From the NCBI GenBank assembly GCA_964645535.1, contig CAZYCQ010000045.1, positions 1-28,076 on the forward strand: a DNA stretch of 28,076 nt. The letters are read 5' to 3'. Position 1 is the first letter of the stretch, and each line of letters opens with the position of its first letter. This document shows positions 21,825 to 27,258 of the stretch, piece after piece. Below the pieces are notes generated by a model. It made no database searches and had not been told where the DNA came from. It saw only the letters and a list, made by a program, of their open reading frames with translations. This stretch comes from an uncultured archaeon. GTDB lineage: Archaea > Asgardarchaeota > Heimdallarchaeia > Heimdallarchaeales > Kariarchaeaceae. The translations under genes were made by a program, and so were the position numbers.

Positions 21825-22955
21825 ATGTTCGAAGTGAATTCAACCGATAATCTTATCGAGCTAGTCTCAAAATTTGAAAAATCATTCAGGGAACTTGACT
21901 TCGAATTACATAGTATATTGACATATGATAGTGGCGGTGAATTTATCCTTCACGCTGGTTATGAAAGCAATCTGATTGATCCCAAAGTAATCGGAGGTCT
22001 TGTGGTAGCAATTAATGAATTTACTGGAAAACCAACAAAACGTACTATCAGAACCATTGCCATGAAGGAAATGACCCTGAAATTTTCAACTCAAGATGAT
22101 GTGCTCTTCGTTTTTGTCACCAAAAAGGCAGTCCCCTCGGAAGACAAATACAACACCTTTATTAACAGATTTCTTGATGCATTTCATGTATCCTTCAAAC
22201 AGGAACGTGACGAAGAAAGAGAAGAGAGAGATAAAATTGCCACAGCCCTTGTCAAAATCACCCTTTTGCTGTCGGAAGAGTTCCAACCATCCTTGAAATT
22301 AGGTGAAAATCAAACTCTGGATCTCGAATTGGTATTCTACGAAGCTGATAAACGTATCTCAAATCTTCTCAGCACATTCTATACTGAGGTTCCAAAAGCA
22401 GATGAAGAAGAAGAGGAAATAACTTCTGAAACACGAGTTCCTCAAGAAACTGATGCTTTATCCAACGATACTCCCCCTGTGTCTGATATCGAAGAAGAAA
22501 CTAGGAGACTTGAAGAATCGGCTGGCATCGAAGAAGAAACTCCTGTATCTTCAGATGCCGAAGCATTCCGAAGTATTGAAGTTGATCCATTCAAATCAAT
22601 AGAATTCATGGTTCAGAAGTTCAATCAATCCTTTCCAGATATCATGTTGACCACAGTTGTTGTTTCTTCTCCAAATGGTGCGTTTCAAACAATTTCCCAA
22701 GGGACTCTTCCTTCACACATCCTTGAAAAACTCAATTCTACCGTTTTCGAGCTGATGCCGGTAATCTATTCAATTTGGGATAAGTCTGTGGAAGACAGAA
22801 CTCTTGAGTTAGGTGAATATTGGGCTTTTTTCCAAAAAATCAATGATTCCTCCTTCATGTATGTGATTACAAAAACCCATGATTCCATTATATTGATCGA
22901 ACCCATTCTGGAAAGGTTGGCCTTTTCCATCAATTCAATTCTTCCATCACAATGA
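21825..22955 (+). CDS. Longin-like + acidic linker + roadblock/profilin-like two-domain protein
   Basis: N-domain ILTYDSGG...DPKVIGGLVVAINEF...IRTIAM; Glu-rich linker; C-domain FNQSFPDIMLTTVVV...WAFFQKINDSSFMYVIT. Confidence 0.55.
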   Translation: MFEVNSTDNLIELVSKFEKSFRELDFELHSILTYDSGGEFILHAGYESNLIDPKVIGGLVVAINEFTGKPTKRTIRTIAMKEMTLKFSTQDDVLFVFVTKKAVPSEDKYNTFINRFLDAFHVSFKQERDEEREERDKIATALVKITLLLSEEFQPSLKLGENQTLDLELVFYEADKRISNLLSTFYTEVPKADEEEEEITSETRVPQETDALSNDTPPVSDIEEETRRLEESAGIEEETPVSSDAEAFRSIEVDPFKSIEFMVQKFNQSFPDIMLTTVVVSSPNGAFQTISQGTLPSHILEKLNSTVFELMPVIYSIWDKSVEDRTLELGEYWAFFQKINDSSFMYVITKTHDSIILIEPILERLAFSINSILPSQ

Positions 22956-23708
22956 CGATTCGAATTTCCTCAACTGCCATTGTGCATGAGGGACTCCAAT
23001 GATGATGAAATAGTAAATATAGCCTATGAATATCTTCCCCAATGTTGGAAACCAATTTGAAGGGGAATATGTCAACAAAAGCATTAGCACAATGCCTAGA
23101 ATAAAGTGAAAAAGATCAAAATAATTGTCAATTTTTCTCATTCCTGTAAAGGGAAGGCTAGACATCATCAGTGTACTAATCAAAATTGCAGAAAATGCTA
23201 TAAATAGGGGATGAATATCTGGGACAACATAAAAAGAGGCAATGAAAATCGCTGCTGGAGGAGAAGGCATTCCAGCAAATACAAGGGATGTTTTGGCTAT
23301 CACAAACCTTGAAAGCCTGAAAGAAGCAGTCAGCACATATAAACTCCCACAAATCCAAGCGATTATTTGATTGTAATCATTGAGCATTTCCAAAATCATA
23401 AACGCAGGTGCCAATCCAAAAGTAACTAAATCTGCATATGTATCCAAATGCGATCCAATTTTGAATTGATAATTGGATCTCCTTGCCAGCTTTCCATCAA
23501 TCGCATCAAACGAAGCTCCAAGAACAATCAATCGAGTTGTCAAGATATGGTTCAATGGATTTCCGATTACGAAGAAAAACAAAACTATTGATCCACACAA
23601 AGCATTCGAAAAGGTAGAAAAATAAGCCATCAATGCATAAATATCCAATTCCATTCCAACCAACGAAATCTTCCTTTTTCCAACTTTATCTAATCCCATC
23701 ATTTTCAC
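22947..23708 (-). CDS. pssA: CDP-alcohol phosphatidyltransferase, PssA/archaetidylserine synthase type
   Basis: DAIDGKLARR...GSHLDTYADLVTFGLAP, RLSRF, FAGMPSP; overlaps psd by 4 nt. Confidence 0.9.
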   Translation of the reverse strand: MKMMGLDKVGKRKISLVGMELDIYALMAYFSTFSNALCGSIVLFFFVIGNPLNHILTTRLIVLGASFDAIDGKLARRSNYQFKIGSHLDTYADLVTFGLAPAFMILEMLNDYNQIIAWICGSLYVLTASFRLSRFVIAKTSLVFAGMPSPPAAIFIASFYVVPDIHPLFIAFSAILISTLMMSSLPFTGMRKIDNYFDLFHFILGIVLMLLLTYSPSNWFPTLGKIFIGYIYYFIIIGVPHAQWQLRKFESSL

Positions 23709-24334
23709 TCAATCCTTGCAATTGGAGTTAAACCTGCTCTTACCTTATCGCCTTTTGTGACCAACAATGTTAAACTCCTTTTGGTTTTCAATCGGAAATT
23801 TGTCTGACTCCCAAATCGAATGATTCCCATCTTTTTTCCTTGGTGGATATGATCTCCATAAGTTATCCACAGATCAATTCTTCGAGCGAATGCGCCTGTA
23901 ATGAGCAATAATTCTATTGCTTCTTTGGATGCTGAGCTTCCAGTGACTAACTTCCGTTCATTTTTTTGTTCTGCCCCTGAGAAATAAACCGACCTATGAG
24001 CCCCTCGCTTATGAAGAATTTCATTAACTTCAAACTCCATCGGAGCCCTGATTATGTGTACATCAAATGGTGACATCCTTACACTTATTCTCAATTCTGA
24101 ACCGTTTTCAGCTTCGATGATCTCACTATTAATAACACTCCCATCAGCAGGAGCATAGATTGTATTTGCATCCACCAAGATTTCTCGATTCGGATCTCTA
24201 AAAAACCATATCTGGAAAATTCCAAACCCTACTGAAGGTATCACCAATATCCAAAACCATTGGCTCAAGAACAACAATGGAATGGGAAGAAAAAAAGGCA
24301 CAATCCAAACCAATGAGCCTTGGGCTAGTTTCAT
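23705..24334 (-). CDS. psd: Phosphatidylserine/archaetidylserine decarboxylase proenzyme
   Basis: FFRDP, APADG, DVHIIRAP, NER, and the IRFGS autocleavage motif. Confidence 0.92.
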   Translation of the reverse strand: MKLAQGSLVWIVPFFLPIPLLFLSQWFWILVIPSVGFGIFQIWFFRDPNREILVDANTIYAPADGSVINSEIIEAENGSELRISVRMSPFDVHIIRAPMEFEVNEILHKRGAHRSVYFSGAEQKNERKLVTGSSASKEAIELLLITGAFARRIDLWITYGDHIHQGKKMGIIRFGSQTNFRLKTKRSLTLLVTKGDKVRAGLTPIARIE

Positions 24335-24635: not shown

Positions 24636-25679
24636 ATGAGCCTTGGAATTTTGGGTTATGGAGTTTATGTTCCCAGATATCGTGTGACCGTGAATGAAAT
24701 CGCTAGAGTCTGGCACGAAGATGGAGAATCGATAGCAAAAGGCATCAATGTTATCGAAAAGGCTGTACCAGACCTTGATGAAGATACCGCTACAATTTCC
24801 GTCACAGCAGTCCAAAACGCGCTGAGGCACAGTGGTATTTCTCCAGAACGAATTGGTGCAATATATGTCGGGAGTGAATCACACCCATATGCAGTTAAGC
24901 CAACTGCTGTTACAGTTGCTGAAGCAATTGGGGCAACACCAAATCTGACCGCTGCTGATCTTGAGTTCGCATGCAAGGCAGGAACAGCAGGAATGCAAAT
25001 GGTTTTCGGTTTGGTGGGTGCTGGGGAAATTGATGTGGGTATAGCCGTGGGAACTGACTGTGCCCAAGGTAGACCGGGAGATGCCCTCGAATATACTGCT
25101 GGTGCAGGAGGTGCCGCTTTTGTAATTGGGAAAGACAAACCATTGGCTGTCTTGGAAGGAATGTATTCTTATACCACAGATACGCCAGACTTTTGGAGAA
25201 GGGAGGGCGCTCGCTATCCATCCCATGCCGGTCGATTTACAGGCGCTCCTTCCTACTTTAGGCATACATTATCTGCAACAAAAGGTCTCCTTGACAAACT
25301 CAATTTGACCCTTGATGATTTTGATCGGGTCTCTTTCCATCAACCTAATGGTCGTTTTCCTTTGAATGCTGCAAAAACATTGGGTATTCCCAAAGAAAAA
25401 ATCATCGATTCACTCTGTGTCACAAGGATTGGAAATACATACAGTGCCTCTTCAATGATGGGCTTTGCCCGCCAATTGGATCTGGCAAAGCCAGGTGAAA
25501 GAATTTTATTGGTTAGCTATGGTTCTGGAGCGGGGAGTGACGCCTTCTCGTTTAAAGTAACCGATGAAATTTTGAACAAAAGAGAGAGATCCGTTCCCGT
25601 CGATTATTACATGGACAAAAGAGTCGAACTGGATTATGCCCTATATGCAAAACATAGAGGGAAAATAATAATGAAATAG
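24636..25679 (+). CDS. Hydroxymethylglutaryl-CoA synthase, archaeal type
   Basis: GSESHPYAVKP, EFACKAG (catalytic Cys), FHQPN, IGNTYS, SYGSGAGSD. Confidence 0.95.
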   Translation: MSLGILGYGVYVPRYRVTVNEIARVWHEDGESIAKGINVIEKAVPDLDEDTATISVTAVQNALRHSGISPERIGAIYVGSESHPYAVKPTAVTVAEAIGATPNLTAADLEFACKAGTAGMQMVFGLVGAGEIDVGIAVGTDCAQGRPGDALEYTAGAGGAAFVIGKDKPLAVLEGMYSYTTDTPDFWRREGARYPSHAGRFTGAPSYFRHTLSATKGLLDKLNLTLDDFDRVSFHQPNGRFPLNAAKTLGIPKEKIIDSLCVTRIGNTYSASSMMGFARQLDLAKPGERILLVSYGSGAGSDAFSFKVTDEILNKRERSVPVDYYMDKRVELDYALYAKHRGKIIMK

Positions 25680-25684
25680 GAGGT
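25678..25684 (+). promoter_or_regulatory. Shine-Dalgarno site of the thiolase gene
   Basis: AGGAGGT ends 6 nt before ATG 25691. Confidence 0.7.
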
Positions 25685-25687
25685 TTC

Positions 25688-26854
25688 GTGATGGCAAACG
25701 GGAAAATTGCAATCATAAGCACAGCGATGACTGAATTTGGTGACCTTTATGAATATGAAATCACAGATATCGCAAATTTAGCAATTTTTGAGGCTTTAGA
25801 CAAGATTAAGGCTGAAAAAAAGGATATTGAGTCCCTCTATGTCGGAAACATGGGCTCACATCTTTTTGAAGGTCAAGAGAACCTTGGAAACTTAATTGCA
25901 ACATATGCTGGACTTACTTGCCCTGCCTTCAAAATTCAGGCAGCTGGTGCTTCTGGGGCAGTTGCTCTTAGAAATGCAGTCAAAGGCATTCAATCTGGAT
26001 CAAAGGAAATGGTCATGGTTCTGGGTGTGGAAAAGATGACCGAGGCAACAAAACAGCACGAAGCACAGCTAGCCTTGGCATCTGGTCTTGATACCAATTG
26101 GGAAACTAGGATGGGGGCAACCTTGGCATCTCTTTTTGCCATTATGGCTAGGGCTCACATGAGGGAATATGGTACAACAAGAGAACAAATTGCTCAAGTT
26201 GTTGTCAAAAATCATTACAACGCCAGTCTAAATCCCAAGGCTCAATATAAGAATAGAGTTAGACTTGAAAGCGTATTGAATTCGAAACTTTTGGCAGACC
26301 CGCTTAGATTATTTGATGCTTGCGCCCTTAGTGATGGCGCTGCTTCCGTTATTCTTACTTCTGAAGAACTTGCCTACTCTTATGATAGCGACCCAGTGTT
26401 TATCCATCAGATTAAACAGGGATTTGCCCCTATTGCTCTACACATGCGGGAAAGCCTGACTGAATTTAGTGGCACAAAATTCGCTGCTGAAAAGGCATAT
26501 AAGGATCAAGGTATTACTCCAAAGGACATTTCTTTTGCTGAAGTCCATGATATTTTCTCAATTGCTGAAATAATTGCCATCGAGAGCCTTGGTCTTGTCG
26601 AGAAAGGAAAAGGTGGCATTGCAACGGAAAATGGTGATACTTCTCTAGAAGGATCAATCCCTATCAATACAAGTGGGGGATTGAAAGGAAGAGGAGCTCC
26701 TTTAGGTGCAAGTGCCATTGCACAGATTATTGAACTTTATGACCAATTCAAGGGTAATGCAGGTGACCGCCAAATCAGCGATCTCAAATATGGCCTTGCC
26801 CATTCAATGGGAGGAACAGGTGGCACTTCGGTAGTCACACTTATTGGAAGGTGA
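25688..26854 (+). CDS. Thiolase-fold protein (archaeal acetoacetyl-CoA thiolase position) with substituted catalytic residues
   Basis: GVEKM, NPKAQ, SDGAA, EVHDIF, NTSGGL; but QAAGASG instead of xAACASG, and GAP instead of GHP. Confidence 0.88.
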   Translation: MMANGKIAIISTAMTEFGDLYEYEITDIANLAIFEALDKIKAEKKDIESLYVGNMGSHLFEGQENLGNLIATYAGLTCPAFKIQAAGASGAVALRNAVKGIQSGSKEMVMVLGVEKMTEATKQHEAQLALASGLDTNWETRMGATLASLFAIMARAHMREYGTTREQIAQVVVKNHYNASLNPKAQYKNRVRLESVLNSKLLADPLRLFDACALSDGAASVILTSEELAYSYDSDPVFIHQIKQGFAPIALHMRESLTEFSGTKFAAEKAYKDQGITPKDISFAEVHDIFSIAEIIAIESLGLVEKGKGGIATENGDTSLEGSIPINTSGGLKGRGAPLGASAIAQIIELYDQFKGNAGDRQISDLKYGLAHSMGGTGGTSVVTLIGR

Positions 26855-26859
26855 ATATC

Positions 26860-27258
26860 ATGGGTGTAGCAAGATCATGGAGAACACAAAAGTCTAGGTA
26901 TAGACTCACTGGCAGCAAATGCATTTCATGTGGGAATCTGTTTTTCCCAATCAATCTGATTTGTGTAAAGTGCTCAAGCAATCAGATCGAGGAATTCCAG
27001 TTTTCTGGAAATGCAAAACTAATTGAATGGACGCGTGTTGATGAAGCTGCAAAAGGCTTCGAACACATGGTTCCCTATTATTTCGCTATTGTCGAATTGG
27101 AAGAAGGAATAAGACTTTCTTGTCAGTTGACTGGGATTGATGATGAAGAAATGCTTCAACCGGGGTTACCTCTTCGAATGACATTTCGTAAACTGGGCGA
27201 AGGGCATGAAGAAGCCATTATTAATTATGGCTTGAAAGCAGAGCCCGCGGATCAATGA
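26860..27258 (+). CDS. DUF35 Zn-ribbon/OB-fold scaffold protein
   Basis: CISCG...CVKC, PYYFAIVELEEG. AGGTGA SD 5 nt before ATG 26860. Third gene of the HMGCS-thiolase-DUF35 trio. Confidence 0.92.
   Translation: MGVARSWRTQKSRYRLTGSKCISCGNLFFPINLICVKCSSNQIEEFQFSGNAKLIEWTRVDEAAKGFEHMVPYYFAIVELEEGIRLSCQLTGIDDEEMLQPGLPLRMTFRKLGEGHEEAIINYGLKAEPADQ

Follow-up and report, generated by a model that had tools for sequence, protein, structure and literature searches.

In textbooks, archaeal membrane-lipid synthesis begins with a complex of thiolase, 3-hydroxy-3-methylglutaryl-CoA (HMG-CoA) synthase (HMGCS) and a DUF35 protein, and the accepted rationale for this complex is that acetoacetyl-CoA is channelled from the active site of the thiolase to that of HMGCS. 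In the complex of Methanothermococcus thermolithotrophicus (PDB entries 6ESQ and 6ET9), the thiolase keeps the nucleophilic cysteine, the cysteine of the HDCF motif, the histidine of the GHP motif and the DCSP motif. We analysed a 28,076-nucleotide stretch of DNA from an uncultured archaeon of the Kariarchaeaceae (contig CAZYCQ010000045.1 of assembly GCA_964645535.1; hereafter the window), in which the same three genes lie together. The Kariarchaeaceae belong to the Heimdallarchaeia, the archaeal class usually placed closest to eukaryotes. The thiolase-like protein of the window resembles the M. thermolithotrophicus subunit in its fold, its three-gene set and its HMGCS partner, but all four catalytic elements are replaced. 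As far as the sequence can tell, thiolase catalysis has been lost with them, and the protein, which we call the pseudo-thiolase, is on balance probably a pseudoenzyme, kept as a structural, non-catalytic partner of HMGCS and the DUF35 protein.

Catalytic residues and fold

The closest solved relatives of the pseudo-thiolase by sequence are PDB entry 7YVY (E-value 1e-79) and entries 6ESQ and 6ET9 (E-value 9e-78). An AlphaFold2 model of the protein has a mean predicted local distance difference test score (pLDDT) of 93.8 and a predicted template modelling score (pTM) of 0.94. With Foldseek, the model superposes onto chain A of 6ESQ with a template modelling (TM) score of 0.96 and an r.m.s.d. of 1.3 Å, at 40% sequence identity.

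The catalytic positions were located in an alignment of 39 Cys-bearing homologues and 16 members of the Cys-less family to which the window protein belongs. When aligned with 7YVY and 6ESQ, Gly87 falls on the cysteine of the AACASG motif and Ala337 on the histidine of GHP, as the initial annotation, made from the DNA sequence alone, had read from the codons GGT and GCT; the two positions are cysteine and histidine, respectively, in all 39 Cys-bearing homologues. That annotation also held that the HD motif is kept, which is true of His287-Asp288 but not of the cysteine that follows: HDCF, present in 38 of the 39, is HDIF here. This cysteine is the proton donor and acceptor (acid/base) in archaeal and SCP2-type thiolases (PMC12329534), so that with Ile289 a third catalytic residue is gone; mutants of it are found in the PDB, among them C337A in entry 4BIA, a Foldseek match. 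The Cys-Ser-Pro of the DCSP motif, present in all Cys-bearing homologues, reads Ala-Cys-Ala in the window protein. Since the nucleophilic cysteine, the HDCF cysteine, the GHP histidine and DCSP are all replaced, no acetyl-Cys intermediate is possible.

Within the window's family, the catalytic positions drift: residue 87 is Gly, Asp, Glu or Ala, residue 211 Ala, Gly, Met or Thr, residue 289 Ile, Val or Met, and residue 337 Ala, Tyr or His. A conserved alternative cysteine, which the initial annotation had thought might reach the active site, was sought in the 16 family members and none was found; Cys78 (present in 11 of the 16) and Cys212 (in 10) were rejected as alternative nucleophiles, neither being conserved. 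In the 39 Cys-bearing homologues, 98 positions reach a conservation of 92% or more; both Cys-less Heimdall families retain 62 of them. Among the 36 lost positions are 86–87, 146–147, 211–213, 289–290, 337, 342, 373 and 375, and by alignment the losses cluster in the active-site loops.

Conservation and selection in the Heimdallarchaeia

The 20 nearest database relatives, 49–93% identical and from other assemblies, have source names that include Kariarchaeaceae and Heimdallarchaeota LC_2. All lack the nucleophilic cysteine, all have Ile, Val, Met or Ser for the HDCF cysteine, and in 19 the GHP histidine is replaced by Ala or Tyr. Checked in this way for both substitutions, as the initial annotation had proposed, these relatives share the loss of the cysteine throughout and that of the histidine with one exception.

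A survey of 61 genomes of the class, sorted by the state of the thiolase adjoining HMGCS and DUF35, shows that the operon thiolase is Cys-less in four of the seven families sampled: f1, to which the window belongs; f2, with Asn or Thr at position 87, HDS[YH] and GDP; f4, with Glu87 and HDSF; and f7, with Asp87, HDSF and GHP. In f6 the operon thiolase is intact (Cys, HDCF and GHP), in f5 a divergent, longer HMGCS-like gene has no thiolase adjoining it, and the single genome sampled of f3 gave no match. When 80 sequences were placed in a maximum-likelihood tree, f1, f2 and f4 formed a single Cys-less clade, with a support of 94 in the Shimodaira–Hasegawa-like approximate likelihood ratio test (SH-aLRT). 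Beyond the class sample, there are relatives that make up further, separate Cys-less clades, and the tree needs at least three state changes. One Cys-less protein from outside the class sample, P0084, likewise sits in an HMGCS-thiolase-DUF35 operon. Another Cys-less thiolase group (P0078, P0090 and P0102) has YDSS in place of HDCF and keeps GHP; the tyrosine in the first position of YDSS recalls the YDHF and YDCY motifs of aldolases.

The HMGCS-like gene of f5 (L049:919-2649 (-), and L050-L053), from genomes of 4–6 Mb, is the sole HMGCS-like gene of that family. It encodes a protein of about 576 residues with a carboxy-terminal extension of about 200 residues and 32–35% identity to the window HMGCS; the Glu, Cys, His and Asn are kept, and there is no Pfam match at an E-value of 1e-3. 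No thiolase lies beside the gene at the one locus inspected (L049), from which we conclude that the operon has dissolved in f5.

Compared with an orthologue of 89% identity, the proportion of non-synonymous differences in the pseudo-thiolase gene (pN) is 0.09 and that of synonymous differences (pS) 0.72; with the orthologues of 89% and 82% identity taken together, pN is 0.09–0.12 and pS about 0.72–0.73, which is saturated. Within the family, the divergence of the pseudo-thiolase is 1.6 times that of HMGCS; in f6, with its intact thiolase, the ratio is 0.97. From the low pN relative to pS and from this difference in divergence it follows that the constraint on the pseudo-thiolase is relaxed but clearly present. 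Both marks of a pseudoenzyme are thus found: the catalytic residues are lost and unconstrained at their positions, while fold and gene are under purifying selection. Of the roles that the initial annotation offered, the pseudo-enzyme scaffold fits best, since the catalytic positions are lost and drifting, whereas the fold, 62 of the 98 conserved positions, the operon order and the selection are kept, as expected for a dead site in a protein that is still needed.

The operon and the supply of acetoacetyl-CoA

The HMGCS, pseudo-thiolase and DUF35 genes are co-directional and closely packed (Table 1). The pseudo-thiolase frame is intact and preceded by a Shine-Dalgarno sequence, in agreement with the initial annotation. 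Its true start is probably ATG 25691, as the database gene call of 387 residues favours. The DUF35 frame overlaps the stop codon of the pseudo-thiolase gene, and its likely start is ATG 26860, preceded by AGGTGA.

Table 1. Features of the operon in the window, and the intact thiolase/DUF35 loci found elsewhere in the genome.
Feature	Position	Strand	Basis or detail
HMG-CoA synthase (HMGCS), archaeal type, 347 aa	24636..25679	+	Pfam HMG_CoA_synt_N/C, ACP_syn_III_C; 6ESQ_I E 4.9e-135
Shine-Dalgarno GGAGG before thiolase-like gene	25679..25683	+	sequence; overlaps last base of HMGCS stop TAG
Pseudo-thiolase, thiolase fold without catalytic residues	25688..26854	+	388 aa from GTG 25688; Pfam Thiolase_N, Thiolase_C_1
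Gly87 (codon GGT, in KIQAAGASG) at the nucleophilic Cys position of AACASG	25946..25948	+	alignment
Residues 211-213, Ala-Cys-Ala replacing Cys-Ser-Pro of the DCSP motif	26318..26326	+	alignment
HDIF (His287-Asp288-Ile289-Phe290) replacing HDCF	26546..26557	+	Ile289 codon 26552-26554
Ala337 (codon GCT, in GRGAPLG) at the GHP His position	26696..26698	+	alignment
DUF35 protein, 135 aa, zinc ribbon and OB fold	26851..27258	+	Pfam zf-ChsH2, OB_ChsH2_C
Intact thiolase/DUF35 loci, window genome	G000:C9:29506-31062; C13:52538; C13:7129; C11:34066		

HMGCS is catalytically intact by its residues: Glu81, His235 and Asn267 are present together with Cys113, the catalytic cysteine that the initial annotation had reported as kept. 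All of the 15 Heimdall orthologues compared have the same tetrad, those with a dead partner thiolase and those with a live one alike. The gene is single-copy in the genome, the window's own being the one tblastn match. The DUF35 protein is a free protein with unchanged zinc-ribbon cysteines (residues 24, 27, 38 and 41) in 13 orthologues; its neighbours are HMGCS and a radical-SAM gene, and no MaoC hydratase is fused or adjacent to it.

Genes for a phosphatidylserine decarboxylase and a CDP-alcohol phosphatidyltransferase (window positions 22947-24334 (-)) are divergent from the HMGCS operon. The order of the three operon genes, with this divergent pair upstream, recurs in three distant family members, including Heimdall LC_2, so that the pairing of head-group and isoprenoid genes is kept (L008, L010 and L011). 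In one closed genome, HMGCS and a Cys-less thiolase occur twice, about 4 kb apart, as a tandem duplication (G004:C1:1296366-1303982; L046 and L048). In Heimdall LC_2, extra fragments of a thiolase carboxy-terminus lie on both strands after the DUF35 gene (L010:7422-7953, at the end of contig MDVR01000160.1); the locus is either rearranged or misassembled at the contig end.

The assembly containing the window is 89% complete and has one copy of HMG-CoA reductase. The search for other thiolases that the initial annotation had proposed revealed four, of 39–42% identity to the pseudo-thiolase; they keep the nucleophilic cysteine, HDCF and GHP, and each adjoins its own DUF35 gene. In Sulfolobus, free thiolase/DUF35 pairs reportedly carry out the condensation of acetyl-CoA (bioRxiv 10.1101/2024.07.05.601840). 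The thiolase on contig C9 groups closest to the canonical archaeal thiolases in the tree, and the surroundings of its gene pair gave no functional clue. Neither a bacterial-type thiolase nor an NphT7-like acetoacetyl-CoA synthase was found in the genome.

In the same genome, two adjacent, very divergent thiolase-fold genes with frames of about 430 and 400 residues (G000:C58:16060-18475 (-); L006 and L007) both lack the nucleophilic cysteine, HDCF and GHP, and may form a heteromeric thiolase-like pair. A PfaA-like type I polyketide/polyunsaturated fatty acid synthase of 3202 residues, in an Asgard genome, is encoded at G000:C21:36265-45873 (+) (L056:6266-15871); its domains are a ketosynthase, an acyltransferase, four tandem acyl carrier proteins, a ketoreductase, a dehydratase and a carboxy-terminal phosphopantetheinyl transferase. 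The sole other gene resembling 3-ketoacyl-acyl carrier protein synthase III (C21:31332-32342) lies about 4 kb upstream of it. Open frames of 3376–3524 residues with the same weak ketosynthase matches are present in the f2 genomes G001, G053, G041 and G045.

Possible roles and comparison with related complexes

According to PMC12960953, which cites Vogeli 2018, archaeal thiolase expressed alone is insoluble, HMGCS alone is inactive, and a fused CoA-binding chamber common to both lies where the two meet. A structural need of this sort would explain why the pseudoenzyme is kept. The pseudo-thiolase would still assemble with HMGCS and the DUF35 protein, and would provide the thiolase half of the shared CoA chamber as well as the assembly on which the solubility or activity of HMGCS would depend. 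Acetoacetyl-CoA would then be made elsewhere and diffuse to HMGCS; in this genome, its most likely source would be one of the four intact thiolase/DUF35 pairs.

The binding of the pseudo-thiolase to HMGCS and the DUF35 protein is itself a prediction; when the complex of the three proteins was modelled, a control scored nearly as high as the trio, so that the model speaks neither for binding nor against it. Several observations weigh against the structural role. In f2 the replacements are uniform rather than drifting (Asn/Thr87, Ser289 and Asp337). His287-Asp288, Asn327 and the loops SGGLK and GG.G are invariant and many residues of the pocket region are unchanged, a pattern equally compatible with some remaining ligand binding or chemistry. 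Furthermore, five f2 genomes (G001, G053, G045, G041 and G039, 88–95% complete) were searched, the queries being Thiolase_N, Thiolase_C and an intact thiolase, and for G001, G053 and G045 also Thiolase_C_1; a Cys-bearing thiolase is absent from all five, the Cys-less operon protein being their sole thiolase-fold gene. HMGCS is kept in these genomes, and HMG-CoA reductase in the four checked (all but G039). A classical thiolase therefore cannot supply acetoacetyl-CoA there, and supply by a paralogue is not the general rule for the clade. The same four genomes each contain one lone Hbd-like 3-hydroxyacyl-CoA dehydrogenase; the surroundings of the gene in G053 were inspected and gave no functional clue. 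In f2, either 3-hydroxybutyryl-CoA is oxidized to acetoacetyl-CoA, or the latter arises in some other way, or the chemistry of the complex is an undescribed one.

That the complex makes HMG-CoA from acetyl-CoA or malonyl-CoA without a thiolase cysteine is unlikely, although the f2 relatives, which keep HMGCS and the operon without a Cys-bearing thiolase, their uniform Asn87 and Asp337, and the invariant residues of the pocket region all speak for it. Both condensations might take place on the HMGCS cysteine while the CoA ester sits in the thiolase-like pocket, or the route might be decarboxylative, for which ketosynthases with Cys-to-Gln or Cys-to-Asn replacements are a precedent. Set against this, the catalytic positions in the window's family vary in a way unlike that of a new active site, and the only derived residues common to f1 and f2 (A91, K200 and R335) do not look catalytic; moreover, the window genome has four ordinary thiolases, and the lone dehydrogenase of f2 could yield acetoacetyl-CoA without any thiolase. 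The wider proposition, that in Heimdallarchaeia HMGCS, the Cys-less thiolase and DUF35 form the true entry to the mevalonate pathway without classical thiolase, be it by an undescribed Cys-independent condensation or by 3-hydroxybutyryl-CoA oxidation, is doubtful, and it is the f2 relatives, with no catalytic thiolase in genomes that are 88–95% complete, that keep it alive. Thiolases being obligate dimers, the initial annotation had also suggested a heterodimer with an active paralogue, which would leave each complex with a single working thiolase site next to a dead one. The active paralogues do exist in the window genome; however, every one has a DUF35 gene of its own, nothing ties their loci to the operon, and the f2 genomes have the dead subunit without any active paralogue, so that mixed dimers, improbable in this genome, fail as an explanation for the whole clade.

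A thiolase-fold aldolase or lyase of the Ltp2/Sal type, for which the initial annotation had drawn the analogy with Ltp2, is more improbable still. Ltp2 and Sal (PDB entries 6OK1 and 9MYR, both also matched by Foldseek) likewise have a thiolase fold without nucleophilic cysteine and work with a DUF35 domain, and Sal has glycine at the nucleophile position (PMC12329534), as does the window protein. Their catalytic tyrosine, however, is part of a YD[HC][FY] motif (YDHF or YDCY; PMC12329534), in which the window protein has histidine for the tyrosine and isoleucine as third residue. Their DUF35 domain is found within a hydratase, whereas that of the window is a free protein of 135 residues, with no MaoC hydratase of the ChsH2 or Shy type bearing or adjoining it. 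The window protein is also far nearer to 6ESQ than to Ltp2 (23% identity), and its operon partner is an intact HMGCS. An Ltp2/Sal identity was accordingly rejected on motif and gene context. A sequencing error, which the initial annotation had rightly thought unlikely, an error of assembly and the decay of a pseudogene can practically be dismissed: orthologues of 55–93% identity from independent assemblies share the losses, the frame is open, pN is far below pS and the predicted fold is confident.

If the pseudo-thiolase is indeed a structural pseudoenzyme, the synthesis of membrane-lipid precursors must begin elsewhere, and the rewired entry to isoprenoid synthesis put forward in the initial annotation is a reasonable inference. 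In the four Cys-less families of the class there is no thiolase site, and the channelling rationale therefore cannot apply to them. The Cys-less relatives carry the database annotation 'acetyl-CoA C-acetyltransferase', and reconstructions of Asgard lipid synthesis that follow it would therefore be wrong at the first step; the window protein should not bear that name. The questions posed are what service a dead thiolase renders to HMGCS and where acetoacetyl-CoA originates, for which the thiolase-free relatives provide a sharp test case. No account of a Cys-less thiolase in an archaeal mevalonate operon emerged from a literature search.

By its fold, by its closest similarity to archaeal and SCP2-type thiolases and by its place beside HMGCS and DUF35, the window protein descends from, and putatively works like, the thiolase of the 6ET9 complex, yet three defining catalytic features are missing from it: the nucleophilic cysteine, the HDCF cysteine and the GHP histidine. 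An archaeal-type thiolase fold that is likewise without nucleophilic cysteine is ST0096 of Sulfolobus tokodaii (PDB entry 4YZO), where a serine aligns at that position. It compares with the window protein at a Foldseek TM-score, normalised by query, of 0.84–0.86 and 36–38% identity, but retains the GHP histidine where the window protein has Ala337. The literature searched on 4YZO and ST0096 contained incidental mentions only, with no structure paper or published function.

The same three-protein architecture, with one dead subunit of the thiolase superfamily retained, is present in the Friedel-Crafts acyltransferases PhlACB and MucABC and in PfACAT/HMGS-DUF35 (PMC12960953, PMC6392133). In PhlACB and MucABC, the HMGS-like subunit is without the E-C-H-N tetrad, while the thiolase-like subunit keeps the cysteine and GHx (PMC12960953). 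The window protein was rejected as a PhlC/MucB acyltransferase subunit because its cysteine is absent and the pattern is reversed. With a live HMGCS and a dead thiolase, the window operon is a natural mirror image of PhlACB, MucABC and PfACAT/HMGS-DUF35, recently described bacterial complexes in which it is the HMGS-like subunit that is dead and the thiolase-like one that is live.

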